A stretch of 62,862 nucleotides of DNA, the filler included, from Neolecta irregularis DAH-3 (Eukaryota), in assembly GCA_001929475.1 (NCBI GenBank). It is 11 parts of 11 records of this genome, joined end to end, with 100 filler letters (N's around TTAATTAATTAA, not from the genome) between each part and the next. Parts side by side here need not be neighbours in the genome. Positions count along the whole stretch, not along the records: positions 50,159 to 57,461 come from LXFE01000667.1; 10 more parts are not named here. One strand, 5' to 3'. Shown one piece after another: positions 24,052 through 61,639 of this stretch (positions are counted from its first letter, which is position 1; the number at the start of each line of letters is the position of its first letter). The position numbers and the translations under genes were made by a program. Below the pieces are notes generated by a model. It was not told the DNA's origin, did no database searches, and saw only the letters and a program-made list of their open reading frames with translations.

Positions 24052-24714
24052 TTGTGAATGTTGACCTTCAAGATGTTAATTGCATTGAGATTCAAGGCGC
24101 TCACGGTCATCTACTTAACTCTTTTTGTTCACCGGCGGTAAATAAGCGATCCGATATATATGGTGGGACGTTTGAAAATAGAATTCGATTCCCGCTTGAG
24201 GTCATTCGAGCTGTTCGAACAGTCATTCCTTTTGATATGCCTCTGTTCTATCGGTGATAGCCCCCTGCAGACTATTTTACTGACGAGGAGGATATCTGCA
24301 ACTGACCGACTTTCCCCTGGTAAAGGATGGGAGATTGAAGATACTATAAGGTTTGCTCGGATCCTCCACAAGCAAGGGATCGACGTTCTTGATGTCAGTT
24401 CCGGAGGAAATGATCGAAATGAATTTCCTTCTGTAACGATTGATTATCAAATTTCACTCGCAGCTAGAATCAAAAAAGAGATACCTGACATTCTTGTGTC
24501 AGCAGTTGGATCAATCACTAACGGCAAACGAGGAAATGAGGTATATATCTGAACTCTTTAAATTCTTATTAAGTAGATCATCAAAACAGGCTTCGCTGAT
24601 GTAGTCTTCATTGGCCGGGCATTTTTGCAAAATCAAAGTGTTGTTGGTCTCTTTGCTCAACATTTAGATAGTGAGGGAAAGATACCTTTGCAATACACAA
24701 TCTCAGCCAAATAA
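24052..24714 (+). CDS. NADH:flavin oxidoreductase (Old Yellow Enzyme, YqjM-like), 5'-truncated, multi-exon
   Basis: [14 protein letters not shown]...[46 protein letters not shown]. Confidence 0.9.
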
Positions 24715-24828
24715 TGGCGTATGGTCAATGCACTATTCATACATAATATCGAAATTCAATCAGAGAAGAGTTCATTATGTCCATTGCCACCCTAAGAAAT
24801 CCAGCTATGCCATTCTGACAGCGCCAAT

Positions 24829-25951
24829 CTAAACGTCAGGGTTAGAGGGTAATAATATTGGTGATTCATTCTTGAATTTCTCACCAAAGTATCCATCAGA
24901 TAGTAAGGATGTTTGTAAAGTCGGGATGAAGGGAGAGCCCGCTCACTTAAAGATGGCTCTTCTCATGGAATGGGCTCAAAAGATGTCTGGACAATTCAGA
25001 CAGTATAACGTTTTCATCAATTGGACCATTTCTTTGAATTGAAAAGATGCGATTGAGCAAGTAATGCATGTCAACCTCTGTTCTGCTAAAAACAAACCAT
25101 TGCCTTTGTTACTCACATCAAGGCGCATGACCTTGAGATCCTATAAAAGCCAGTCTGACTAGGATGTTGACTTTCTGCAATGGCTTTGCGAATTCGTCGA
25201 AGTTTCCATTTCCTCCGACGATTCAACTCTTCCCAATTCTTTATGACTTCTTCATCGGATCGACAAATCCAATATTCAAACCTTGTATGAAGCTTGACGT
25301 GCTCGCAGAAAGGCAAAGCTAAAAAATTCTGCGAGTCATTAGTAGTCTTTAAAGAATATGCTGTATTACAATTGGAACGGGAAGAAATGGATTTTTTAGG
25401 ATATCGCCATTAATGCCAGTAATGATCTCGACAAATACTTTAGCTAGATCTCCGCAATTCCAAATAGCTCTCTGCTCTCCGAAGAAGCTAACAAGCATAT
25501 TCCCTATATCGATTCAGAGAGTAGGGAGCTGGGACTGCGTACCAACAGCGATAATACTTTTTGTACTCATCGATGTTTTGCCAACTCTACATTCTCGCAG
25601 CAAAAGAGCTTTTTTCGGATTAAACCAGTAGAATTTCTGACATTCTATCCCGGTAATTTTTCCAGTATCTTCAGTGATTGCTAGTTGAAAGTAGTAAAAC
25701 ATTTTTCCTAATTTCAAGGCCCAGAGGCCCATCGTGTTGGACATCCAAGCATTTCCGCAAGGTGTAGTAATCGGCAACAAGTCAAGGTTGGATGATAGGA
25801 AGACGATATCCACGTCCACATGCAAAGTATCCGAAATTTTGCCAGGGATATATAAATCCCTCGCGCTCTGGTGTGCCTTCCGTCGGATGGAATCGAATTC
25901 AAAAGCTAACAGTCGAAAGTGATGCTCGATTTGATTGAGAGAATTCGACAT
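24829..25951 (-). CDS. hypothetical multi-exon protein (5' end uncertain)
   Basis: Successive minus-strand ORFs joinable via short GT-AG introns; no family recognised. Confidence 0.35.
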
Positions 25952-26433
25952 TACCTCTGATTGAGCACAAATATCGGGAGCGGACGCCCAGGCTTTCTAT
26001 TCCACCATTTCACTTTGATGACATGTGGACAAGGTAATAACTTGACATTTCGTCGGTAGATGAAACAGGAAATTTCGAAAGATTTCTTTAAAGTGAGATG
26101 ACTAAAATGAGAGAGAAAATTTCTGATGAAAAGAACATCAAGCGGGAAAGGCATAGCTTTTTTTTATCCATTAAACTAGTTGAGCGACGATCGACGTGTC
26201 TTCAATGATACGATGAGCCCGAGATTGTCACTGTTTTTAAGGGACGGCTGGCAAGCTATATTCCATCCAAGGCTTCAAAGCTTTTGAGAAAAAAGTGGTA
26301 AAAGCCGATTCAAGACTAGAATTTTTGTATAAATTGGATATAGTGAGTAATGAAATTCAAATGTGTGTTTAGGGTGCGTTCGCCAGCCACCATTTTGAAA
26401 CTAATATCCTGATATTAGGTTCAAAATACGAAA

Positions 26434-26524
26434 TTCCGAATCCGGGAATTGAACCCGGGTCTCATCGGAGCTACCAAGCAGATATCTTGAAAGCGATATA
26501 TACTAGCCACTGTACTAATTCGGA
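26434..26524 (-). tRNA. tRNA-Glu(TTC) with a 19-nt intron
   Basis: Acceptor TCCGAAT/ATTCGGA, D arm, anticodon stem TATCG/CGATG with CTTTCA, T arm CCGGG-TTCAATT-CCCGG. Confidence 0.93.
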
Positions 26525-26739
26525 CTGAGTGAATATACAACTTTGAAAGTTACATATATTGGAAACNNNNNNNNNNTAACTCTTTTTGTTCACCGGCGGT
26601 AAATAAGCGATCCGATATATATGGTGGGACGTTTGAAAANNNNNNNNNNNNNNNNNNNNNNNNNNNNNNNNNNNNNNNNNNNNTTAATTAATTAANNNNN
26701 NNNNNNNNNNNNNNNNNNNNNNNNNNNNNNNNNNNNNNN

Positions 26740-27774
26740 TTTTCTTCATAACTAGCATTTATTTCCTTTATCTTAGTATCACTTAGGTTTTCCACCTCAT
26801 AGCGCCCAGTGCCCTGCATTAATCTTGCGACATTTTAGACATCCATTGTTATTGGTAATATATTGTCATTCTTGATCTGTTAACTTCTTAAATGTCCTAT
26901 GTGAAATTGTGTTTATATTTGTATTTCTGTATGGTTTGCATGACTTCTTTAATTGAGTTATGATATTGTCTGCTCGTTCTGCTACTATGATTATGTCATT
27001 GAAAGAGGCATCTCTTAATCCAGGTTCAACTTGTAATCTTAAATCAAGATTCATGCCCATCAGAAGCGTCTCACTCGCTAATTCTTCTGGGATGATTTCT
27101 CTGCCAATTTCAGTCCATAATCGGCGTACTTCTAGAGCATAGTCTGTAAATGGTCTTCCTTTCTGTTTAATGGAATTCCACTCCTGTAGCTGTAATTTTC
27201 GATAATTTGATGGTAAAAAATTCGTTTTAAGCTGTTCTTTGAATTCTTCATACGATAGTGCTTCATCCCTGATACTTTCAAACCATCTTGCTGCATTACC
27301 TTCTAGATAAGTGCCAGCTAAATCAGTTTTTAGTTCTTCAGGGACTGCCGTTAATTTAAAATATGATGTCATTGAACCAAGCCAAGCTTGTACAACTGAA
27401 GGGGTTCGATCTCCATTATACTTGGCTGGTTTGTCTACTTTGAAAGTTGCTTGGTAGGCAGCAATAACTGGTTTTGTTTCAGGGGGTACTGGTGTTGGCA
27501 TTGGAGTGTTCATTGGGATTTCTGGTATCTTTGAGCTTCTTGTTCCTGGTCTCATTCAGAGATATTGCTTGCTGAATTGTTGAAAAAAGTGTAACCTTTT
27601 GCTTTCCATAGGATGGTTACACTGGTACGATCAGGTTACACGAGTACGATCGGGTTACACAAAGGTATACTAAGCAACAATGAACAAGTCTAATATCTCA
27701 ATAGATACAAAGTGAGAATCACCATACCTAATATCTCAATAGATACAAAGTGAGAATAGTTAGGTATGGTGCCA
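26740..27774 (-). mobile_element. Ty3/gypsy retrotransposon 5' part: leader + gag (ORF 26866-27555, premature stop before a decayed zinc knuckle)
   Basis: KPAKYNG...YLEGNAARWF...F...IKQ (Retrotrans_gag pattern); downstream GCLKCRKINAGHWA; PBS-like TGGCACC at the scaffold edge. Confidence 0.88.
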
Positions 27775-27874: not shown

Positions 27875-29009
27875 CCCCCCGCCTGCCCCGCCCGCCGGAG
27901 GATCTCCGGCAGGCGGGTCAAATTTTTCCGGCGGCTGGTCTTTTTTGACAATTTATATATGTGCAATACAATCTTCACTAAATAACCAAAACTGCTAACA
28001 TAAAATGATTTCTATCTGGTCATTTCTTTTATTGGTGAAGTATGCTGCACATACAAATGCTGATCACTGTGTCACATGAGACAAATCTTGCGAGCCTAAC
28101 TTTGAGCAAATTGCAATCAATTCACAGTTCAACAACCAACCAATGTATTCAAACAAAACAAACACTATCGAGATCAGAATTTTAAAGGCAAAACTAATGG
28201 TCTGCCAACAAATTCAATACAAGAAAGTCAAAGGGGGACATTTAAAGAAGCATCACATGGAGGAAACTACCAAACCGCCGTACAACCTAACAGCCTCCCA
28301 GAACATTCTCCAGATGGTTGGTTGGATCTCTTGGTGAAGGCGGGAGACATAAACATCTGGTCTGAGAGGCCCTACCCGCCAGAGAGGTTCCGGCGGGCGC
28401 ACAGTTTAGATTTTTCCGGCAGGCGGCCTGCATCCTAATCCTCCCACATTGTTGCGGATGGACCATGGACTTAATCCAGTCCATTAACAGTCCATGGATA
28501 AAGTCCATGAACTGGACTATGGATAAAGCCCGGCCCATGGTCCGTGGGCCTAATGGGTCATATCACGTGATATTAGATTGTAGGGATTAATCGCGTCTAT
28601 CAGTGACATGGAAAAGGCTCTGCTTGCTGCCTCTTACTCCCCTACTCGCTTCCTCTCACTCCCCTGCCCATTATCGCCTGCCCTCCTCGCCCGTTACTGC
28701 CCGCCCTCCTCGCCCTTTATCACCCCACCCTCTCGCCCGTTATCGCCTGCCCTTCTCGTCTGTTATCGCCTGCCCTCCTTGCCTGCTATCGACCCGCTCA
28801 CCTCGCCCGTTACTGCTCCCCCTCCTCGCTCTTTACCGCCCGCCCTCTCGCCCGTTATCGCCTGCCCTTCTCGTCCGTAATCGCCCGTTATCGCCTGCCC
28901 TCCTTGCCTCCTATCGCCCCGCCCACCTCACCCATTACTACTCCGGGCGGGTGGGCGATCTTCCACCCGCTCGCCGGTGGTCCGCTAGGCGGGCAGTGTG
29001 GACACACTG
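27875..29009. mobile_element. nested cluster of hAT-like non-autonomous remnants, including C-rich minisatellite 28620-28935
   Basis: GTCCA/TGGAC and GGCCC subterminal repeats, GGACACACTG end at 29009 as in the MITE at 46230-46290. Confidence 0.55.
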
Positions 29010-29107
29010 GATTTTTAGTGTTGATACAACTGGGTCTCACCATATTGTAAGCATTGCAGCGTATAAGCTAAATATAAAAGAAAAGATATATTAACATACA
29101 TATTAAA

Positions 29108-29251
29108 TTACCAATTCACAAAGTCATTCCGACCCCAGCGTCGCTGGCACTGGGCTGCTGCAATAATATCTGGTTGAAGTTTAGATCGACGAGGCTCAAA
29201 CATATCACCTGCCTCACTAAATGCTCTTCCACAATTAGCACTTGATACTGG
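29108..29251 (-). mobile_element. hAT transposase C-terminal dimerisation-domain fragment, cut by another element at 29252
   Basis: PVSSANCGRAFSEAG...RRSKLQPDIIAAAQCQRRW matches the hATC pattern P-x-SS...R-x-FS-x-x-G...R-x-x-L. Confidence 0.8.
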
Positions 29252-29750
29252 CAGTGTTTGCAATGGGCCATGGGCCGAAACGGGCCTTTTCACGTGATAT
29301 TAATAATACTACCATGTCTCCTCCCTAACCGCCTTCCTACCGGCTTCGCCTGCCCGCCTTGCCAGTCCATCTCGCCAGCCTCTTCCACCTCACCCTCCTC
29401 GCGCTCCTCTCCAGCCTTGTGTGCCTGTCTTGCCCACCTCGCCTGCCTCACGCGCCTCTCCCGCCTCACGCACCCATCTCTCCCGCCTCGTGCTCCCATC
29501 TCGCGCTCCAATCTTGCCCGACTCGCGCACCTCTCCCACCCTACGCGCCTGCCTCACGCTCCTGTCTAGCACGCCTGTTTGGCCCACCTGCCTTGCCCAC
29601 CTTGCCCACCCGCCTGTCAGTTTCCTTGCCAATATTTAGATAGATATAAAGAATTATTTACATAATATAGAAATTAATTTTTACTTGCCTTTTAACATAT
29701 TCCTGCCCTGCCCATCTCTGCACTGCATGCCACCACCCAAATTGGCCGTC
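29252..29750. mobile_element. hAT-like non-autonomous element remnant
   Basis: CAGTG TIR matching the 4539 end; pyrimidine-rich repeats; segment homologous to 7900-8070. Confidence 0.65.
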
Positions 29751-30053
29751 GTTTGTACTCTAGCGTGTTTGGAGTGGGTTATACCCTTGGGCAGAGCTTA
29801 CCATTACGGAAGGAAGGCTTGCAATAATATTGCGGCATTTTAATAGTATTATATGAAGTAGATAGGGTTAAGCTAAGTTCAGTCCCTTAGGCTAGGTATG
29901 TCCGCGGGGAAGTTCAGTTACTTAGGCTAGTATAATAAAATCTGGTCTTATTCGAACTCGAGCTTCAACACTTACAAGGTTTCATTGTTGCCTTGAAAGC
30001 CTTGTAGTGGTAATTTTGGTGAATCACCGTGCAGTCTATCAGAGGTTTCGTCA

Positions 30054-31660: not shown

Positions 31661-32821
31661 TTAACCTGTGGAGGAACTCGTATCTCCACTACTTCCAATG
31701 TCTTCATCTTCATCCATAGCATCAAGGACCAAGTCCAAATCGTTATCAATCTTCCACGCCTTTGTTTTCATACTAGCTTTAGCTCTGATTCCAACACCTC
31801 GTATTAGGTCAATCCAAGATAGTGAAGAACTACAGCCAGGACAGAAGCCGATAATTGGTAATAGAGATTTGCTTTTGTCAAGGAAGATCGCAGCAAGGCA
31901 ACGGACGTGTGCGAGATGAGTACACGGTCCTGAAGTACATAGTATTATGTTTTCGTGTGGCGACGTTAGAGTTTGTAATAACTTTGCGGAGAAAGGTTTT
32001 AAGCATATTGAGCAAATCTTTCCTTCAATTCCGTTATCAAAAATCTTTTCAGCCTTTTCGAGATGATCTGTAGTGAACTTTGCTATTTGGTCAACCGCAG
32101 ATCTAACAAGTAGTTGCACTTGCGAGGAGATCGATCCCCTGTACCCCACCAAATTCATCTGGCTTATAAATAAGGCGCTTTGTTTTTGAAACTGGGCTTC
32201 CAGGCAATGGAGTTTTCTCTCTTATTTTCCCTGGTCTAAGGGGGATTTCATGTGCCGGAGACCCTTCCTTGGTCTCAACTGTCCTTTTTCTTGGATCTAA
32301 TTCGAGAGTAATATGAGCAGGTAACCCTCCGGAAGCCTTGTCGAGGATCTGTTTCCAAATGATCCAAACTTCTTGTGAAAATATTTTCATTTTCAGAGGC
32401 CACCCACTCCAAGCATCAGATGTCAACATAGCAAATACATTCTGAGCGCTTTTTTTAAGGTCAAATCGAGGACTCGAAGCGCGCTTTCTAGCTGATTTAG
32501 AACCGCGAATTATCGATCTTGTTTCCGACGGTAACCGAAGTGTTTTATGAGGATGTTGCCAGGCCCATTCAAACTGCAAAGCCGCAAGCTTTGAGGGAAA
32601 GCCATACACTATCATGGTCATATCCCATGGTCTTCTTTTGCTTGTTTTGGAAGCACCAGAGGATATTAGTCCGTTGTGTTGCCGGAGACGCTTAAACGTT
32701 AATTGGTTGTTATTGCTAAGAGATATACGCGTATTGGATTTGGAGTTGAACCTATATAGACTGACTTTGGAAATGAGAGGGATTTGAGGAGATAGCAGGC
32801 GTAAAAAGACGGGACGTCCAT
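31661..32821 (-). CDS. SLX1: structure-specific endonuclease Slx1 (GIY-YIG + RING-like), multi-exon
   Basis: FYACYLLKS...[27 protein letters not shown]-terminal CSIC...C...C..H..CL...CPGC...W. Confidence 0.95.
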
Positions 32822-34044
32822 TGGGGCAGCCTCGCGGCGGTTAGGCGGATTACTAAGCCGCCCGGCTGCCGAAGAGGTCTGAACCGCCCGCCCTCTCCGG
32901 CAGGCGGTTGGGCAGTTGGGCGGGTCGGATAGAAGGAACAGAGGGATAAAGTGTATAGTGTAGTATATTGTTTCAAAACTGGTGATAAGTATAAACATAT
33001 ATGCTAACTGCATTTCTACTTCTATTATTCTATTATGCCATTCTAATGTTGTTGTTTTTGCCCTTTGGTTAATTAAAGGCCTTTCCACGAGGAGAAATAA
33101 TAGCAACTGAAGAAATGGCCAGAGAGAAATCAATTTATCTTGGCAATTTTTGTTATTTAGTGAATGCAGGACAGCTTGTCCATTCATTTCACTTAGCAGA
33201 CAAACAACCCGAACCGACAACTTTCTGTTAATTCGGAAATGTCTGTCAAAATCCACAATTAGACTCTCTGCTCCGACCTTTGAATTTTGGGCAGAATGAT
33301 CCGAAACAAAAGTCTTTCGCTAATCTCGTATCTCCGTTATTCGCAGTTGCTGCCTTGATTACTTGATACATGTTCAAGACAATTGAAGAAAACAGAAAGC
33401 ATACAGGTACAAAGACTAAGTTTATGTCTTGTATGAGGGGCATGTTCTACGTAACATTGATGCTGGCTGATACTTGTAGGAAACTCAACTCGTTGATGAA
33501 ATCTACTTTCATTTCCCAAAGGGATTTTCCATGTCGAAAAGTTGAAATAAGGAGTTAGCTTTTACTTCTAATTATTGAGCCTTCTGGGGGTGCTCGCGCC
33601 AATTAGGACACGGATTGAACAGCGACCTATGTTGGGATTCCAGCGAATCAAGATCTGCAATCATACCTGATTGACCTCGAGCTTGATATATGTATTGGAC
33701 CAATACTCATAGTCACCAGGCGCTTCTATTTACCCCTTTATTGTCGTATTGGCTGGATGCTGGATAGTCGAGATCACGGCGACTGGGTTATGCTGATAGT
33801 TTAGGCAATAGTCAATCAGCTAGTGACACACTCCATAGTTCCACTTTTGCCACGTTTGTGCAGTGTCATTGTCTCCACTGGTTCGAGTCACATAGCTTTT
33901 CTCCTCCTTTATCCTTTTACACGGTCTCTTCTGGCCGAAGGCCGGTCTCGGTGGCCCGAAATTCTTACACGCACCCCATCGATCTTGCTTGCACGACAAA
34001 CCGTTCTAGCATTTCAAGTTCAGTCTTGTTATAATTCCGAAATC

Positions 34045-46579: not shown

Positions 46580-46858
46580 AAGTAGGAGAGGCAGGCGAAG
46601 TAGGAGAGGCAGGCGAAGTAGGAGAGGCAGGCGAAGTAGGAGAGGTGGGCAGGGTGGGTAGGAAGGTGGATAGAGTTAAGAAATGGAAGGGGAAGGCCCT
46701 CACCACCACTACTACTATATGCTATCCAAATATCCAAATATCCAAATATTTGACTACTAGGATTTGGTTTATATTTGGCTAATTTTGAGCTCATTTGATT
46801 TGGCTATTTGGCAAATATTTGAATTTGGTTATTGTGGTTTGATTTGTTAGGAACACTG
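46580..46858. mobile_element. terminus of a CAGTG-ended element with 18-bp tandem repeat (AAGTAGGAGAGGCAGGCG)x3.5
   Basis: Tandem repeat at 46580-46645, AAATATCC x3, ends GAACACTG. Confidence 0.5.
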
Positions 46859-50158: not shown

Positions 50159-52080
50159 GTGAAATACTTACTAGCACCCCGAAATATCCAACAGAGAATT
50201 CTGATAAAAACCATGCAAAGAATGTTCTCCGGGAAGGGGTCAATAGACATAAAATCCACCAACCAGTCTCGACCTCCCAATTTATACGGGGCGACACCAC
50301 TGGGGACAACAATGCCTTGTGGAGTGAAATTATTGCCAAATCTTCTATTGGTACTTCGAAATCCACAACAAACGATTACAATGACGATCGTAATAAGGTT
50401 CTTGCAAAGAAAGTCACCTTAGCAAACAAGGCCGTCTCGCAAGTCACGATTTCAAAGACAATTTCAAAGACCAATGCATCATTCGTATCCAGAACTAACG
50501 AGAAACAATCTGCACTATCTTCCAAGTCTGAGATATTGTCTGTAAAATCATCGACGGACATTCTACACAAATGGTGTAAAAATCATAAAAGTACAGTTAA
50601 AGAATCTACACCAAAATGTTCCTCTTCAAAGTCATCAAAGTCAATGACAGGATCGCAAAGCTCTTTGACATTAAAATCCATGGAAGCGAAAGTCACTGCT
50701 ATGTACAAAGACCTGGATGGAATAAAAGTGGTTGAGAGTGCAGAGATTTCATTAGAGGTTCCGTCCACTTCTGTTCCTGCACATATGAGTGGTGCTTTGG
50801 GTCCCGATACGGTTCTCGTAAAGAAAGTGCCTAATCAACTCACCACCGCAAACATGATCATCCCACAAGTCTCGACTACGAAAATCCCTTCAAAGAATGT
50901 TGCATCAAGCTTATCCAGTAATAACCAGCAACAATCTGCCCAACGTTCTCTGTCCAGGCGTTTCTCTGCCAAATCATCTGATGGAATTCCACGCAAAACC
51001 CACAACAATGATATTGGCATAGTTCAAGTATCTTCATCAAAAGATGTATCACCGGAATTTTCAAAGTCGATGACTGAATCACAAAACTCCTTAACATCCT
51101 TCGGCAAAGCATTCCTGGAAGCGAAGGCCGATAAGGTAGAAGATCATTTGGGTCAAATGATCGTTGTCGAGAGCTCAGAGGTCTCTGAAAAATTACAATC
51201 CACTCCGGCTCCGGAGCCAAATTCTGGGAAAGGCAATAAAACAGCCCCAGAGAAGAGCAAGAAGAATAAAAATCCTAGGAAAGGTGGCGATGATAGCGAT
51301 TTGGATCAGTTTTTAAAAACCTATGTCAAGTCACCTGTAGAACTTGATCGAATCACAGACCCCATGAATCTACCGAAGATCAAAATCCCGAATGCATTAT
51401 TCTCTTCGCAAGAGTTTGGACAGTTATATTCAACTTTATCAAATTCTCGAGATGAAATTTCTGCAAAGTTACTTGATCGCTTCGCGAGGATTCAGTATGC
51501 TCAGAGTTCAGCGCAGATCAGGACGAAAGTTCTTTTCCTTGACGCAAGTGAACTTGCCCTAGGATATAGTCTCTCTCAGGAAAAGCCTTATGGCAAACAT
51601 TTTACATCTTCGGATTTCCTCTGGAGCTCTGTCACTAGAGATCCTCCGGAAAACATAGTTATGTTTTGGGCACCAAAAATAGAATCTCAACAGCATCAGG
51701 CGATATTCCTATTCAACTTCAACCTCAAATCTGGAGTTTTCACTGGTGCAGGTAAGAGGGAGTTTCGAAGCCAATTTTGTCAAAACATTTCAGCTCTTTC
51801 GGAGCTAGCAGATTTGATTCTTTCAAATTGTGCTTTTGATTATATTCCCACCTTCAAGCAGACACAATATTCATATTCGTCTATTGATAATCTAAAATTT
51901 CAGGCCTTCGGATTGGATTCAAATATCTTCCTCGCTGGTGAGGTTATGACAATCATGCAAAATATGACGCCAGAATCACCTTATCACCGTGCTCAATCAT
52001 ATAAGAAACCCATCGAATTCCTTTATATGATGAAAAAGGATATGGCAAGAGCCTTGGCGAAATATGCAGAAAAAATCTAG
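50159..52080 (+). CDS. large Ser/Lys-rich protein with degenerate Ulp1-like C-terminal domain, 5'-truncated
   Basis: Frame open from the scaffold edge (EILTSTPKY...), intronless, more than 630 codons; paralogue at 55726-57461. Confidence 0.8.
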
Positions 52081-52676
52081 GCCATAGGAAACCCCAACTT
52101 GTGTCTAATTTCTATTGAGGTGCATTCGCCAGCCACCAAAAACGAAAAACTCGATATTCTAAACAGGATATTTTTGGGTGAAAATTAACATTTTGAGTAA
52201 TTATTTTTTGTTAACTCCTCAAGAACGCGTTTGCTGCCACTGCTTAGCTACAGTCATACAGCAGATGCAGAGTGCCTACAGGGTGTCTGTCATCTACAAG
52301 GCATATGGCCATGCCGGCTTCCCTTCTGGCTGAACATAAATGCCCAGTACATTCTCCATAACCTAGTTCTAGGAAGGTGTTATTTATCTACCTGGCGTTA
52401 CATAAGCAACAGCATATCAAAATAACCCGTCAGTTACAACCATTTAGATGTGGCAAGATACTTTACCGGATTCCCCCAAAGGAGTGTCTTACACACATTG
52501 CCTTGGTCAAGGAATTTTCAATAGTCAATTGAATCGATTAGAAAGTCATTCGGGTTTGATATTATCAATATATCAAAACTGTTTCCTATTGGGATTTAGA
52601 ACCAACTCTAGTTATGCCCTGAAAATGCTTGATAATATAAGAAACATGCAAACCTTTTGGCCTGTATATCTCCATT

Positions 52677-55273
52677 CTAAAAGGAAAACAATCCGCGCAG
52701 ATCAAACTCGTTTGTAGTGATGTTGAACTCCAGTACCAGATTCACGATCAAACTCGAAATGTAAATAAATATCAACCCCATCCCAATTTTTCTTGACATG
52801 CCATACTTTGGCACTACCATGAGTAATATCACCAGCGAAACCAGCAAACTTGTTGCAGAAACAACGAGATGTGGAGAAACTTCAAGATGGTATCCGTTTG
52901 AATTGCCAGGATGTTTAATGTTCATAAAGATACCCGAAGCACCAATTCCAATAAGAATATCTGTAAAGTTTTTAGCATCACGATAGAGACAAAAACGTAC
53001 TCAACATTGGCCCACCAAAACAAGCAGACATAGCCATCATCGGAAATCCCATTTTCGCAACGGTAACATTGGCAATAAGATCACCCAAACTATTTCCCTA
53101 TTTTCTTCAGCAAAATTTTCAAAACTAAATACCATTGCAAATACTGTTAACCCCAAAATTGCATCGCTGATATTCAGGATTATGCCCAACGCTTGTAAAA
53201 CGCCCACGACTTCATTGGCAATACTCGAAATCCAAAGTGTGCCAACAAAGAAACCAACATAGCTCAATAATCCGAGCCATCCAGGTTGACTCTTCGAATT
53301 GGTCAAAATTGCAATCAGCAACCAGCACATTGAACCCGACAACAAAGCATAAAGGAAAGGCAAAAGACGACCAGGAACTAAGAATTAATCAAACGATTAA
53401 AAATTCCATTCATACAAAATAGTAAGGCCAATAAGATGGGGATAGTCATGCTTTGCAAGGATACGAGCCATCTTTTCCAGGGTGGGGCCTTTTCTGATAT
53501 ACTGGGGAATGAAGACACATCGCTCTCGTCGCGATTCTCCAATACAGATGACGAGCCATCTTCAAAACCAGCCGCTACTGATCGACCATGATGACTGTGA
53601 ACTACGGGTACTGTTACTTTCAGAAGGAAGACCGTCGGCACAGCCATAACGGAAAGAAGAATTTGAAAAGGTGATTTCGTAGTTAAATTTTCGAGCGTAG
53701 GGAATAATGTGTAGATTATATCTGGAAGAGGTGATAGATATCCGTCTGGCCAGAAAGATGCTAGATGCTCGAGTCCACTTGGCGGAACGGCAGTGATAGT
53801 TTCTGGCAAAGCTGGAGAAATGGTGATATTTGGTATTGAATCCCAAGTACAAGACTCAGGCAAGGCGTTCAAAATTGTGGCATTCCGAGGAGTAACATTG
53901 TGCAACTTGGGCAGAAAATCCTTTCGTAAAGCATTGCTTATGTCGTGGGAAACAGGCGATTGAAGATGGTCGTGGTGGAACCCCGTCAATTCTGGTATTT
54001 CTTGAAATGATCTTGTCGGTTGTATAGCTGAAGCAGATAGACTTCTTTGACGAGATTGAGAACCTTCTGGAGATCGGCCGTTGACCAATTGCAGTCCCAA
54101 CCCCACATGTGGGCTATCGTCGATCTTCAGTGATGCTGGATGATCTTCAAAGGAAGAGCGATCATAAGAACGCGATTTTTGCAGTCGCAAAACATCACTA
54201 CTTTCTTGAGCCAGCCGGGTTACAATGGACCGAAACTAAAAACATTTACTACATGATACATTGTGAATCTCACCTCAAGTGCTCCAAGAAGTGAAGGTCG
54301 AATTGGTATTCGAGGTGAACATGACACGGAGGTCTCCTGCGATCGCATTATAGTCATCCTATGGTTGAGGTTTGTGTATTCTTCTTGTTCAGAGGGATCA
54401 TCGCGCTCTTGGTGTTCCAGATCCCCGATATCAGGTGCGAGAAGCCTCGTGTGTTCATCCAACTCTTCTGCTCCGTATTCGGTGCCAGGTGTAGCAAAAC
54501 GATTGCGAGATAATATTTCTGTTATTCGATGGGCTTTCTTTGTGGTTGAATACCACGAATCGCTTATAATGCTGACGACGTAAAGTGCATAGATCCCAAT
54601 CAAAGCAAAAGATTCCCATAAATGCAATATGCCATCAGAGATCATGACCATTGTAAAGAATGCGGCAACCATGAAAACGCCGACATCTCGAAAAAATTCT
54701 CGTTGAGCAACTTTAAAAGGTCGAACGATTGCCATTGATCCCAAAACTACAGCAACAATGAATGAAGCTGCACCAAGTAACTCTCCTACTGCTAATGACC
54801 CTCTACCAGCCTTCATCGCGGCAAATGTACTGAACACATCAGGTGCACCGTTACCAAAGGCAAGGAACGTCACACCAGCCTCATTTCGTCAGCATGGGTA
54901 AGGCGGACAATTGGATACGATGTTTTCTGAAATACCCAATGAATGCGAAATATATGCCAAATTTGGGCAGAAAAATTCAGACGCAGCTATTCCTATAGTG
55001 CTAAATAGAAGAGACAGCCATATCGCCTGTATGATTTAAAGTCGGCCTGTAGAGAAGAAAACATACCAAAAGCACAACCCCGGTAAACTTTGCGTTCTCC
55101 ATTCGGCAAAAATAAAAGTCCAGATAATTGAGATAACCAGCTGAATCCGAATTACAGATTTCGAGCTGTTTAGCGGCTGGTAGATTGTTCAATATTGAGA
55201 ACCCCGATGTAAACTGGATCAATAAACAGATGCAAATACAGAGCCATAGATAACGAGGACGCGAGTATGCCAT
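52677..55273 (-). CDS. cation/Ca2+ exchanger, CCX/NCLX (Ecm27-like) family, multi-exon
   Basis: GVTFLAFGNGAPDVFSTF (alpha-1) and LGLTVFAMGNSLGDLIAN...ACFGGPMLN (alpha-2). Confidence 0.95.
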
Positions 55274-55725
55274 GGCTGGTGTGTATAATCCTCGATATTC
55301 GGCGCCGGTGGACTTATGGCGGTGTTCCAGTTTAGCGATATTAAATGGAGACGTAAACTTGGACGATTGGCGTTCAGACTTCCAAATTAGACTATGCCAC
55401 CACATTAATACGTCAGGTGCAGAACGCTATTTTACATCTGTTCCGCGCGAAATATAAAATCCGCGAAACGTAAAGGGAAATAACCACCGCCACCACTACT
55501 ACTCCAACGCTTTGCTTATACCCATCTAGATGTCATCCGTGATCCACCTCTAAGAGAACCAGCAACACTAGTCACAGACAAGACTATTAAAGCTTTTAAG
55601 CAGTACCTGGAGAACTATGTGGCCAATTTGAAGAAACCAATCCTTTTCGATCAACTAAGGTACAATTGGTACATGCACTATCAAAACAAATCAGGGTTTG
55701 ATCAAAGGAACTGAAAACACAACAA

Positions 55726-57461
55726 TTACGACCTAATTATTCCCCGCTTATTCGCAAGGATTCTCGCCATATGCTTTTTCATCATGTAAAGGAACTCGAC
55801 AGGGTGCCTGTGTGCTTCTCCTGAGCGATATGGTATGTCCAGATGCGAATCTTGCAGTAATTCTATAATCCAAATACCAAAGAAGATATTTGAATCCAAT
55901 CCAAGAGCGACAAGCGTTGAGTCACCAACCGACAAATATAGAACGCCCTTATTCGCTGGGGGAATGCCCGGAAATTTCCAACTTGACTTTATCCTTGTTA
56001 ATTGTTGGTCAATAGCCAAAAAGGTTTCACTTGAAATAGAATTATGATCCTCCTTACCTATAATAAGTGTAACTCCAGTTGTGATGCAACTCGCGACTAG
56101 TAATATGGGCTGATGTTGAGTCTCTATTTCGGGTATCCAAAAAAATAGTACGTCTTCCGGGGGAGTTTTGTAAGTGTCATGGTCCCAGAGAAAATCCGAA
56201 GATTTGAAATAATTTTCAGAACCATTTTCCTGATAGTTTCTATTTCCGACTGCGAGTTCATTTGCGTCAAGGAAAAGAAGTTTCTTCTTGACATGCGCTG
56301 AACTATGAGCATACTGAATCCTCGCGAAACGATCGAAGATCTCTGCAGGAATTTCTGTTCGAGGGTTTGATAACGTTGAATACAGCTCTCTATATTCCTG
56401 TGGAATGGATGATGCTTCCGGTATTTTGATCTTGGATAGGCCCATCGAGTTTCTAATAGCCTCCGGTTTGTTCGTTGACTTGACATACAATTTCAAAAAC
56501 TCATCCAAATTATCGTCCTTGTTGTTTTTCGGTTTATTAGTATTCTTTTGCTTTAGGCGTGTTTTGGGTTTCCCGGGACCATCACTCTTGGACATATGAA
56601 CAGAAGCGGGCTTAACCAAGGAATTTTGCGGTTCCAAGAGGCCATGTGGCGCATTCGCCCCCGTGGATGTTTGACCGGAGAATATCAAAGAGTTTTGCAA
56701 TGTCTTTGGCTTTGACGACTCTGAAGAAGATAACTGTTGGGTAGATTCTGGAACTCTACCTTTATGATTTTTGCGCAATTTATGTGGAATCTTTTCAGCC
56801 GATGACTTGGGCTCAGACTTGGAAGATTTGTCATATTGAACAGAAGCGGGCTTAACCAACGAATTCTCCTGTCTCGCAACATTATTTCTTTGGTCCAAGT
56901 GATCATGTAGCACACTGACATTTCCTTCCGCGGATGTTTGGCCGGAGGATGTCAAAGAGCTTGGCAATCTTGCCTTTGGCTTTGGCGACTTTGAATTCGT
57001 ATCTTTTTGTGTAGATTTTTGAGCCTTACCTTTTTCATTTTCGCTCGATTTGTGTGGAATGTCCGTCGATGATTTTGCAGACAATATCTCAGACTTGGAA
57101 GATAGCGCAGATTGTTTCTCGTTAGTTCTGGATACGAATGATGCATTGGTCTTTGATATTGTCTTTGAAATCGTGACTTGCGAGACGGCCTTATTTGCAA
57201 AGGTGACTTTCTTTGCAAGAACCTTATTACGATCGTCATTGTAATCGTTTGTTGTGGATTTCGAAGTACCAATAGAGGATTTGGCAATAATTTCACTCCA
57301 CAAGGCATTGTTGTCCCTAGTGGTGTCGCCCCGTATAAATTGTGAGGTCGAGACTGGCTGGTGGATTTTATGTCTATTGACCCCTTCCCGGAGAGCATTC
57401 TTTGCATGGTTTTTATCAGAATTCTCTGTTGGATATTTCGGGGTGCTAGTAAGTATTTCAC
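55726..57461 (-). CDS. paralogue of 50159-52080, 5'-truncated
   Basis: First about 410 bp nearly identical to the other copy; shared DRFARIQYA, LFLDA, SSDFLW, GLDSNIF, EFLYMMKK. Confidence 0.8.
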
Positions 57462-57561: not shown

Positions 57562-57633
57562 AGTCTAGCGGGTGGGTGCGGCAATTAAAGTTTGCTTATA
57601 TACCCTTAACCCTAACCCTAACCCTAACCCTAA
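57562..57633 (+). repeat. 66-bp terminal direct repeat (= 61422-61487) running into a telomere-type (CCCTAA)4-5 tract
   Basis: Exact match of the two scaffold ends; CCCTTAA(CCCTAA)4 at 57603-57633. Confidence 0.95.
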
Positions 57634-57672
57634 TAATTACCAGGGCTGGTAGTACGTACTCGCGCTCTGTTG

Positions 57673-59501
57673 CTACAGGTCGACGCCAGCCCCGCGGACC
57701 CGCGTCCAGAAATTATACTTGCCCGCCTGCACAAAGTATAGCGGTATCCCTGCGCCTCAGCCGCGTCCATGCCCGCCCATACCTGCAAGAATAAACCCAA
57801 TCCCTGCCGCGGATTCTATCGGCGCCGTCATGATCCCTTGGCTTACCAGAAACACCGCCACACTGCAAAATAGGAGAGGCGTCGTCAGCCATGTCTTGTA
57901 CGGCCTCGAGTCAGCTGGCAAAAACATTGAAACCACACCGCACAAGATCAGGCTCTTCATACCGCAGCACCACAACCCCCATCACTGTAACAAGGTAGAA
58001 TATCCATCCGCAAAGCCCGTAAAATGCACTGCCAACTTCAGCTCCCTTGTCACCGGAAAATTCTTACATTAGTCGCTTGAAATCACTGCAAACCAATATA
58101 ATCGCACTCGCGATCCCCGCATTGAACAAGAGCGCATTCACAGGCGTCTTGCGTTTCGAAAGGATCCCCAGCCGCACAGGAAGGTACCCTTCATGCGCCG
58201 CAATATATACGATTCGCGAACTGGTAAACGTCATCGAGCTAAGTGCTCCTAAACAACTCCCTGCTACCAGAATTGCAAAGATAAACCCCCCGGCTTCACC
58301 AAACACCTTCTTTCCAAAATCAATTGCAATCGTGTTTGTAGTTGTCATTGTTTGCGAGGGTAGTACAATGTAGTACGAGATATTTGCCAGGACATACGAT
58401 ACTTTGCGATGAGCCCAGGGTTATATGACTCGTACCAACTACAATAGCCTCGGAAATGTGGATCACTCTGCTTAAATCCCGGCTAGGATTCTTCATTTCC
58501 GCAGTAACGTAGTTCACCTATCCAATTAGGCTTTTATTTTAAAAACATACATTATCCCACCCGTCGTATGCCCAGAGACCAGCATATAATGCTATCGCGT
58601 ACTGCCCAAACGATCGACTCGATCCTTGAAATATATTACTCGAGAAGTTCTCGCTTACCGCGTTCCCGCGAATAGCTACAAAAACGCCCGTCCCCGTCAA
58701 AATCAAAAGCAGCAGTATCTTGAAATCAATCCGCAGAAAAGAGACCAAGTACCTTTATTACAAAAAACACATTATTTGTTCGTGTGCCGGAATTGGGCGA
58801 CCATGCATTGACTCCAGAGACGAAAAGGATACAAGTGACCGCGATAAACTTCTTCACCAAATTGGTCTCGACAGGTGGAAACAGCCGAAGCAAGTATTCT
58901 GCAAAGATAATTGCGATGATCGCCGCGCCACCTGGTTTCAAAGCCGTTATCGCGGTCCCTAGAAATATTAGCGCAGTCGTCATTAATACATACAACTAAA
59001 CAGAAATGACGGTAACGGGCCAAATATATGATGCAAATATGCCTTGAAACAGTAAGAACCCACAAACAGAGATACAAGAGATACCACTGGACCACCATTT
59101 AATGGTATTGCAGCTCCTAGTTCAGCATAACTAGCTGCACCTGTCCAAGCAAGTAACCCAGCAACAATCCAAACAATCAAAGAAACACCAACACTCCCCG
59201 AATTCAAAAAAACAAACCCCGTACTCGAAAATATCCCAGAACCAATTTGTAAACCTACGACCAGCGCCACGCCACTTGCAAACGAAACAGATTTTTCTTT
59301 TTCAAGACGAATTGATGTTGAGTTTATGTCTGTGCTACGGGAAAGTGGAATTAAATGGTCTTGAAAAGTTAGGGAATGGAACGATAATCGGCGTGATGAG
59401 ACTGAATCGCGAGCCGAAGGGGAAAAGTCTTCAGAGTCGTCTGATGACGAAGCAAGTGACCTAAAATCAGGGGAACCCCGCTCTTTATTTGAATTGACCA
59501 T
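57673..59501 (-). CDS. APC-superfamily LAT-type amino-acid permease (Mup1-like), multi-exon
   Basis: GLQIGSGIFS, SYAELGAAIPLNGG, LYAGLWAYDGWDN, EMKNPSRDL, SSRIVYIAAHEGYLP, RPYKTW, LAGIPLYF. Confidence 0.93.
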
Positions 59502-60837
59502 ACTGTCGTAAGTGGAAACCAAAAGGGGAGAGAAACTTTTACGATTTTTAAATATTGGAGAGTATGCCGATGGGAGTTGAAGGTTTGTCAGTTTTGAAAA
59601 CGAGCATGTTTTCTGTTTCACCAACCAAGAATCAATTGATAAACACACGACCTTTCAAACCAAAAGAAACATTGCGGGGGTACTATGATTTATTTGGAAT
59701 TTATATATTCTGGGGTTTATGGACTTTGGGTATTGTTAAAGCAATTGAACAACTAATTTCATAGATCGCCCCATCTTCATAAATACTCAATCGCAGTGCT
59801 GTACATTTCAGTTGATCATCCTGCAATAACCACCCCCTGTCTAATTCGATTTTCATCCTTGAAAAGTATCAGTGGGTTAAAGGATATCAGTACGTTGGTT
59901 CAGAACTAGTACCTTTATCAATCAGTCTAAATACCAAATTTAATTGAAAAACATCTATTTCTAATAATTAACCGGCGTTTCGATACCACGATAATTAAAA
60001 AGCAACAGAAGGAAAAATCAGACATCTGGATCTCGAAATGGAATATGTCAAGGGATAGATTTATTGTCAGTTCTGATTCGCGATACATGCTCGATCGTTT
60101 TTAGGACGATAAAAGGGGATAGAGCCACACATTTGTGAAATATATTTCGTCAATCTTAATGCAGATCTCGGATTACTTTCATGTGGTGATTTGGGAATCA
60201 CGTGTCGATACGATCCCTGAACTACGTACAATATCGCGTAGTGTGGATTTGCCTTGGCTCTTTTGAACGATAAGAGAGATACAATTTGTCGGTAAATCTG
60301 AATAATGCACAGAATTATAGTTCTTCTCCTTGTGGTCTTTTTATCGTCAAAGAGACGCTCAACTCGTCTCATTGTAGACAAAGTACAAGGAACTTGACTA
60401 CGTCACTCCTGTCGCGTGTGGCTTTGCACCGTGAAACTCCCGTTTGTGATTTCCGATCTCCGATCTAGGGCTTTTGTTCCGAAAAATGTTCGGCAATGGG
60501 ATTGAAACTACCCGATTTTGCATTCCCGCTCATGCTTCAGCATCGGAAACCTCGAGCTAGCTCTTGGATATACATTCAATAACCCATGAAAAACTTGGTC
60601 CAGATAGTGTTTTTCATTGCCGACAAACTGATTCCTTTTTTGACGGGGTTTACCCATAAAATAATTGATTTTTCGGCTGCTTTTATGGAAAGCGCTTCGG
60701 CATTCTCAACTATAAGGGTACTGGCTACCCTGACTGCAGGACCGTTGGCATTAAATACGACCTTACGCCCGCTGCTGAAGACTACTCTTTCAAACTTGAC
60801 CAGTTTGTTTCTTCCAGGATTATATCTCGTCCTCGAT

Positions 60838-61236
60838 ATGATCGCTGCAGACCACGTAAAGAAGTTGCAAAACAGTGAACGTGCCTATATTGCAGCTTCT
60901 CGTCGCACTGGCAGACCTTTACAGGAGCGTTTCAAGTCTGCTCATGGCGCTAGTCTCAAGGTGGTCCTGGCATTTGACTTTGTCATACTCATAATAGCAT
61001 TTCGAAAGAACTGGAAAGTGGCTTCGAGTTACTGAAGAATCAGTAGAAGCTGAAGATATCTATGAGGAAATAGATACCCGATACGAAGCTCATCTTGCTG
61101 CTTTACAATGTCAAAGGGAAGACTCGTTACAAGACGACTCGTTACCAGACGACTCGTTACTAGAGGAGTATGTACAGCAGGAGTTTGTACAGCAGGACTC
61201 TGTACAGCAGGATTCTGTACAGCAGGATTCTGTACA
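60838..61236 (+). CDS. conserved ascomycete hypothetical protein (AYIAASRR domain) with pentapeptide repeats; start uncertain, runs into gap
   Basis: ERAYIAASRRTGRPLQERFKSAHGASLK / HFERTGKWLRVTEESVEAEDIYEE after a 37-nt intron; resembles a motif I recall from uncharacterised ascomycete proteins. Confidence 0.65.
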
Positions 61237-61639
61237 NNNNNNNNNNGGCGAGATAGAGCGCATAGCTGCCCCCGGCCACAGGCAGCAGCACCGGCCCCGG
61301 GATCTGCAGTCAGCCTCCTGCGGCCAGCCGGGCACTGCCCACTGCAGAAACAGATACGCGCTCGCTCGCAGCAGCACAGACGCGGCAGCAGCGACACGCC
61401 CAGCCATTGCCGGGTGGTTGGAGTCTAGCGGGTGGGTGCGGCAATTAAAGTTTGCTTATATACCCTTAACCCTAACCCTAACCCTAANNNNNNNNNNNNN
61501 NNNNNNNNNNNNNNNNNNNNNNNNNNNNNNNTTAATTAATTAANNNNNNNNNNNNNNNNNNNNNNNNNNNNNNNNNNNNNNNNNNNNTAATTGATTGTTG
61601 ATTAAAAGTATTGAAGTGTTGAAAACAAAGAATCCATAC

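Follow-up and report, generated by a model that had tools for sequence, protein, structure and literature searches.

Inverted paralogs with a recently homogenised 5' part around a Na/Ca exchanger gene in Neolecta irregularis DAH-3: a probable case of gene conversion

Within the Taphrinomycotina, Neolecta irregularis is a filamentous ascomycete that diverged early. The DNA analysed here (hereafter the window, 62,862 nucleotides (nt) in all) consists of separate contigs of N. irregularis DAH-3 chained by artificial N44-TTAATTAATTAA-N44 spacers. Our subject is one of these contigs, record LXFE01000667.1, which the spacer map of the window delimits at 50159-57461 as 7303 nt of gap-free sequence. 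It carries two long open reading frames (ORFs), A and B, which run towards each other from the two contig ends, with a Na/Ca exchanger gene between them. The contig ends are inverted copies of each other, and these arms form the 5' parts of the two ORFs as far as they lie on the contig. The arms are nearly identical and the bodies of the two genes are old and diverged, a mosaic that probably reflects an old inverted duplication followed by later gene conversion of the 5' part. The assembly to which the contig belongs has a size of 14.5 Mb, an N50 of 16 kb and 199-fold coverage, and the DNA was taken from fruiting bodies, as described in the main text of PMC5309816. Feature coordinates are collected in Table 1; offsets in the text are bases counted inward from each contig end, with the right arm read on the minus strand.

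Read inward in this way, the two arms agree at every position of offsets 1-66. Eleven mismatches are then scattered over offsets 67-411 (at 67, 104, 119, 144, 185, 263, 269, 305, 356, 385 and 406), dense mismatches begin at offset 415, and the ungapped alignment breaks down past offset 513, beyond which the homology of A and B is gapped yet still alignable. By blastn, arm matches arm over 513 nt at 92.6% identity (E = 0.0), and the two copies (50159-50671 and 56949-57461) lie inverted on one gap-free molecule with unique DNA between them. A two-rate likelihood scan places a change point after offset 405, with a 2-log-likelihood (2-lnL) interval of 398-414; mismatches number 10 in the 405 positions before it and 28 in the 108 positions after it (Fisher p = 4e-13). 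Arm identity is ~97% (3.2% divergence) and falls to ~74% from the change point to offset 513. In blastn comparisons, the other ~55 kb of the window yielded neither another arm copy nor another copy of ORF A or ORF B.

Divergence at synonymous sites (dS) and nonsynonymous sites (dN) separates the arm from the rest of the gene pair. The 11 arm differences comprise 6 synonymous and 5 nonsynonymous changes (dS 0.066, dN 0.016). In 40-codon windows of the codon alignment, dS is 0.04-0.11 in the arm, 0.17-0.48 at the boundary, saturated in the middle of the genes and 0.22-0.85 in the C-terminal domain, and DNA identity between A and B amounts to 182 of 408 aligned sites in the middle and 510 of 795 in the C-terminal domain. 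Because dS is low in the arm, the similarity of the arms is recent and does not merely reflect selection on the protein. The 5' part of the pair has been homogenised recently, the arms being too similar for the age of the duplication. An earlier note on this DNA had described a contig that starts and ends at the same base, with 66 identical bp, then about 345 bp with scattered differences and then abrupt divergence, and had read this as a young constant part placed by homogenisation on old variable parts. Every element of that description was recovered in our analysis, and the sliding-window dS values, which run from 0.2 to saturation in the rest of the genes, agree with the reading.

ORFs A and B share one architecture. 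Each has a Ser/Thr/Lys-rich N-terminal half (38% Ser+Thr+Lys) that is disordered and made of tandem modules, followed by a C-terminal domain of ~270 amino acids (aa). As proteins, A and B are 75% identical over the first 206 residues, with nearly all of this identity in the first 137, and 45% identical over the last ~257 aa (E = 9e-65); the note had likewise claimed that both frames are open to the contig edges and that their C-terminal domains are homologous. From base composition, the chance that the frames would stay open for this length is ~5e-18 for A and ~2e-16 for B. The first in-frame Met occurs at aa 162 in A and at aa 289 in B. The first 16 nt of the contig (50159-50174, mirrored at 57446-57461) read GTGAAATACTTACTAG, which could be a branch-point-like ACTTAC with a TAG acceptor, and the contig edge may fall inside an intron. 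Modules 1 and 2 of A are 42% identical in a segment comparison (E = 2e-17), and the modules of B appear in the DNA as repeats ~240-276 nt apart (families D2, D3, D7 and D9). Since module 1 begins within the homogenised arm, the old tandem copy of arm-type sequence inside A indicates that the arm is native to the gene and has long been part of it.

The gene pair has left little trace in public collections. A word-indexed search of 5.8 billion proteins gave no match to residues 370-639, the C-terminal domain, among proteins of 351-1119 aa, and none to the 137-aa arm up to E 1 among proteins of 241-2000 aa. Among 1.84 billion representatives, the sole match to a profile of the two C-terminal domains was P0003, a 5817-aa repeat protein in which 12 short stretches match profile positions 144-193, and we read this match as spurious. 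Neither collection returned A or B as a match to itself, although the exchanger from the same contig is present. Public annotation therefore seems to lack ORFs A and B, probably as a result of gene starts that fall outside the contig. On these sequence comparisons the pair is lineage-restricted (orphan), with no sequence-detectable homologue in the collections searched.

The enclosed gene is, by its sequence, an ordinary conserved gene. ORFs between the pair match the Pfam family Na_Ca_ex (PF01699) at 4.5e-20 and 4.8e-06, and the middle ORF is 99% identical to P0004, a 731-aa protein annotated as 'putative cation exchanger [Neolecta irregularis DAH-3]', which aligns to 55035-52680 on the minus strand in several exons. 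The presence of a Na/Ca exchanger here, as the note had it, is thus borne out by both domain and annotation. Across Ascomycota there are relatives 800-1000 aa long with 43-59% identity, some of them named sodium/potassium/calcium exchanger 6. The P0004 model, which maps to about 55062-52680, begins MENAKF, and similarity to the Taphrina deformans homologue starts ~20 residues upstream of that Met. An upstream Met codon, followed by a hydrophobic stretch, lies at 55273. The public model is probably truncated at its N terminus (over 55062-55273, minus strand), with the coding start at the Met codon at 55273.

Table 1. Features of the Neolecta irregularis contig and of its inverted gene pair, in window coordinates
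Feature	Position	Strand	Remarks
Whole contig	50159..57461		Artificial spacers at both sides
Left arm, recently homogenised part (offsets 1-405)	50159..50563	+	Homology runs on to 50671 at ~74% identity
Right arm, recently homogenised part (offsets 1-405)	57057..57461	-	Homology runs on to 56949
Inferred inner end of conversion tract, left arm	50556..50572	+	2-lnL interval; right-arm mirror 57048-57064
ORF A (P0001), 639 aa + stop	50161..52080	+	5' end open at contig edge
ORF A module 1 (aa 80-211)	50398..50793	+	First 58 residues inside homogenised arm
ORF A module 2 (aa 218-356)	50812..51228	+	Old diverged tandem copy of module 1
C-terminal domain of A	51268..52077	+	Candidate divergent clan CE (Ulp1/SENP-like) fold; His codon 51694, Ser codon of GLDSNIF 51919
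Na/Ca exchanger gene (NCKX6/SLC24A6-type), with introns	52677..55273	-	Pfam and annotated P0004
ORF B (P0002), 577 aa + stop	55726..57459	-	5' end open at contig edge; architecture as ORF A
C-terminal domain of B	55729..56541	-	His codon 56115, Ser codon of GLDSNIF 55893
ORF B tandem modules (aa 134-207, aa 224-287)	56599..57060	-	45% identity, E = 8e-12

The exact coincidence of the two contig ends carries the signature of the assembler. In a de Bruijn graph, a contig with a copy-specific base extends exactly k-1 bases into shared sequence, and the first arm mismatch, at offset 67, fits such an overlap. A second case occurs in the same window: the ends of the neighbouring scaffold at 57562-61487 also overlap each other by exactly 66 nt, which is independent support for k-1 = 66 and k = 67. 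The note's proposal that the 66-bp identity is a k-1 overlap gains from this second scaffold, and, on these overlaps, an assembler k of 67 is most likely. Neither the assembler nor the k-mer size is stated in the main text and one supplementary file of PMC5309816. Within the arms, the longest identical internal run is 77 nt (offsets 186-262); it exceeds 66 nt and was assembled through. Since a run of that length was traversed, the identical run at the contig ends should be longer than 77 nt and should continue outside the contig. The collapsed upstream node was sought at the remaining contig ends in the window and was not found there. Two further details concern the scaffolds themselves. The overlap in the neighbouring scaffold is direct (57562-57627 and 61422-61487), and this scaffold, which has a 10-N gap at 61237-61246, resembles a circular or tandem path in the graph. 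In the scaffold at 24052-26639, the last 63 nt (26577-26639, after a 10-N gap) repeat 24116-24178 near its own start, a graph or scaffolding oddity.

The nature of the C-terminal domain was approached by profile, feature and structure comparisons. The Pfam family PF02902 (Peptidase_C48) gave no match at E <=0.1 with the whole proteins or at E <=10 with the domains; at relaxed thresholds, Pfam returned just sub-threshold noise (DUF7040, MSP1a and KNOX2), and a PDB profile search found eIF1A only (E = 1.6). Among Atlas look-alikes by language-model features, 23 of 30 matches for one domain and 22 of 30 for the other belong to clusters with 16-27% PF02902 members, with a top score of 0.94 and 169-171 shared features. 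AlphaFold models of the two domains, built on two-sequence alignments, are poor (mean pLDDT 40 and 38). When compared with the PDB by Foldseek, these models gave lists led by Ulp1, SENP1/2/5/7, the NEDD8 protease NEDP1, poxvirus I7L and other clan CE enzymes, with clan CE accounting for 28 of 44 and 34 of 40 among the matches listed, by our own classing of their descriptions. TM-scores are 0.2-0.37 and no match reaches E <= 0.001, and with models of such low pLDDT these matches serve as leads only.

Two conserved elements can be placed within the domain. The sequence GLDSNIF is invariant between A and B and opens a predicted helix, and a conserved His in QHQ (aa 512 in A, aa 449 in B) precedes it by 75 and 74 residues, respectively. 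Set against the Ulp1 motif, by inspection and not by an alignment, the His-to-Cys spacing appears alike and Ser stands where Cys would be expected; no conserved Asp was placed for a His-Asp-Cys triad. As in Ulp1/SENP proteins, a long disordered N-terminal part precedes a C-terminal domain of ~220-270 aa in both ORFs. They differ in carrying Ser, not Cys, at the position that we read as the nucleophile on that motif, and in having no sequence-level match to PF02902 or to solved structures. As a lead and not as a statement of membership, the look-alikes, fold matches and conserved residues, three weak lines, hint at a very divergent fold of Ulp1/SENP type (clan CE) for the C-terminal domain.

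We consider it probable, at about 0.68, that the contig contains a real two-copy inverted repeat that arose by an old inverted duplication and was later altered by gene conversion of its 5' part. The old duplication would have produced two convergent paralogs flanking the conserved exchanger gene, and much later a non-allelic homologous recombination event would have copied the 5' part of one paralog onto the other. The inner end of the conversion tract would lie near codon 135 (Table 1) and its outer end beyond the contig, and the 11 arm differences would have arisen after the event. The expected outcome is a young arm of ~97% identity on bodies that are ~64% identical in DNA and 45% in protein. 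A short-read assembler would be unable to separate the identical stretch just outside, and the contig would stop at the same base on both sides. Past the divergence step, the two genes remain homologous in a shared frame, with identity back at its old level, which points to a conversion tract ending in homologous sequence and not to a junction with unrelated DNA. If a minority of such events were resolved as crossovers, they would invert the 6.5-kb interior and exchange the gene bodies between the two upstream regions. The note's claim that recombination between the arms would flip the exchanger and swap bodies between 5' ends is right in its topology, and such inversion would be expected as an occasional by-product and not as a regulated switch.

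Several points weigh against gene conversion as the explanation. Conversion is not formally separable from a partial re-duplication mediated by recombination. The analysis is based on a single assembly of a single field-collected specimen, and the outer flanks lie beyond the contig. A and B are missing from the protein collections and are genes predicted from sequence, and the dN/dS value of the arm is built on just 11 differences. By simple arithmetic, the chance that an identical run reaches 78 nt or more is ~0.08 at 3.2% divergence, and the outside part therefore need not exceed the arm in perfection. The note held that the repeat probably continues outside with perfect identity; the assembly points to a continuation past 77 nt, and a long perfect repeat is not required.

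A recent partial inverted duplication without conversion, in which the upstream region and the first ~400 nt were grafted onto an older paralog, would yield the identical young-on-old mosaic. The junction, however, lies in register within homologous sequence, the frame is kept and homology of the old level resumes at once, as would rarely be the case at a non-homologous breakpoint, and a graft made by homologous recombination would be the same process as conversion. An arbitrary duplication breakpoint is also opposed by the native character of the arm together with the continued homology beyond it. We regard this alternative as unlikely.

The same combination of a native arm and continued homology argues against a mobile element, the essence of a second alternative in which the arm would be the margin of a mobile element, or of a dispersed repeat of high copy number, adjoining two genes of unrelated age. 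Unnamed-protein clusters with a minority of Peptidase_C48 members are often transposon-borne in plants and animals, and clusters of this kind are what the look-alikes of the C-terminal domain belong to; the contig also ends at a collapsed node, as the edge of a dispersed repeat would. On the other side, both bodies continue the reading frame of the arm, the 11 arm differences include 6 synonymous ones, and ORF A holds an old diverged tandem copy of arm sequence. No other copy occurs in the rest of the window, ~55 kb of DNA with a Ty3-type gag in it, and arm and domain are both unmatched in the two large protein collections. A dispersed repeat is, on this balance, distinctly unlikely.

A further alternative is a regulated invertible cassette, in which the upstream regions of the two genes differ, for instance by a promoter or first exon on one side only, and recombination between the arms flips 6.5 kb, with either body A or body B expressed. 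With convergent genes that carry the inverted arms within their 5' coding sequence, the topology allows such a flip, the arms have been kept similar, and both gene starts lie off the contig, leaving room for a single expression site. Pfam scans of the contig, however, turned up no domain of a recombinase, of MAT or of MSG type, the known copies number only two across the window and the two protein collections, and an arm difference of 3.2% does not match the outcome of frequent switching accompanied by conversion. Moreover, the identical stretch would extend outward from both ends, which would make the nearest upstream sequence the same for both genes. The best studied natural homogenised inverted repeats showed no detectable orientation phenotype, in the account given by PMC9731477. 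By analogy with that case, homogenised inverted paralogs need no switch, and gene conversion during non-allelic recombination suffices (PMC9731477). We consider a regulated cassette very unlikely. Still less weight is given to its one-sided form, in which a flip would join one of two clan-CE-like bodies (Ser occupying the site expected for the nucleophile) to the sole promoter and first exon; if true, an early-diverging ascomycete would possess a two-state protein-variant switch based on inversion, with a conserved calcium exchanger riding along. An assembly artefact, be it a chimera, a hairpin contig or a head-to-head join between two haplotypes from a heterokaryotic fruiting body, is highly improbable even with field-collected fruiting-body DNA, an N50 of 16 kb (PMC5309816) and other graph oddities in the assembly, as the arms pass by degrees into bodies that share 45% protein identity and do not have the same number of modules, which makes them paralogs and not alleles or a fold-back, and the interior is unique with one intact conserved gene.

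Other contigs of the window contain features that are separate from the gene pair. An ORF with Retrotrans_gag and Ty3 capsid domains (26866-27555, minus strand) accounts for the greater part of a 1035-nt contig. When the entire window was scanned against Rfam, one tRNA only came up, on a contig other than that of the pair (26434-26524, minus strand); the match covers 91 nt against a 71-position model, and an intron is probably present. The 18.6-kb contig at 27875-46479 opens with a C-rich run, and its first 2 kb (27875-30000), at 50% G+C and a GC skew of -0.23, are unlike the remaining window. The same contig holds an ORF with a GIY-YIG nuclease domain (32103-32840, minus strand; E = 1.3e-06) and also condensin subunit 2. 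In the contig at 46580-50058, the terminal 30-mer recurs in 18-nt steps (46580, 46598, 46616) as a short tandem repeat spanning 46580-46633.

If gene conversion is the right explanation, the locus would be a clean and small case of partial concerted evolution between inverted paralogs, with a datable conversion tract that has a sharp end inside a coding region. It would also illustrate how conversion tracts break short-read assemblies and thereby hide genes from annotation. The analysis flags an unannotated gene pair in a fungus relevant to the origin of multicellular ascomycetes, and the fold of its C-terminal domain may be of Ulp1/SENP type, far diverged and with Ser as the residue at the nucleophile position. 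Only the existence of both orientations, together with a difference between the upstream regions, would raise the significance of the locus.

The literature searched contained no report of Neolecta inverted repeats of this kind or of Ulp1 in Neolecta. The note had drawn analogies with flip-flop mating-type inversion and with MSG expression in Pneumocystis. In Ogataea polymorpha, the flip/flop is a 19-kb inversion involving MATa and MATalpha genes, induced by starvation and acting through centromeric repression (PMC5720833). As in the system described there, inverted repeats in Neolecta bound a segment whose inversion would change the set of genes beside a given neighbourhood, but the genes in Ogataea are MAT genes, and Pfam scans of the Neolecta contig detected no MAT-type domain. 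No HMG, alpha-box or homeodomain gene was found in ORF A, ORF B or the interior ORFs, for which only Na_Ca_ex rose above the cut-off, and the mating-type analogy is not supported for either ORF. Pneumocystis has ~50-80 MSG genes and a single upstream conserved sequence expression site, according to PMC2743713 and PMC3411419. Like the MSG genes as reported, the Neolecta pair has a constant 5' leader on variable bodies, and both fungi belong to the Taphrinomycotina; Neolecta differs in having only two known copies, with no further member in the window or the protein collections. ORFs A and B gave no Pfam match to an MSG domain at E up to 0.1 or 10, and with neither this domain nor a third family member found in the window and the two collections, the MSG analogy was not upheld.

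The closest documented case, by analogy of arrangement, is the flip/flop region on chromosome XIV of Saccharomyces cerevisiae. There, 4.2-kb inverted repeats carry the Centroid paralogs YNL018C and YNL034W and are continually homogenised, which the authors attribute to gene conversion during non-allelic recombination (PMC9731477). As reported there, ~4% of events are crossovers that invert the 24-kb interior, both orientations are observed, orientation is tied to no phenotype, and short-read assemblies failed on the repeats (PMC9731477). The two loci differ in extent: the chromosome XIV repeats span whole genes and are near-identical, whereas in Neolecta only the 5' ~405 nt, plus the stretch outside the contig, are homogenised, at ~97% identity; and the 24-kb block of chromosome XIV compares with a 6.5-kb interior with one gene in Neolecta, where the bodies are old, a comparison of arrangement and not of sequence. 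They are alike in pairing fast-evolving, lineage-restricted inverted paralogs around one or more ordinary genes, with copies too alike for their age. The Neolecta structure is one of inverted paralogs with partial concerted evolution, and as such it belongs to a known kind of genome behaviour.

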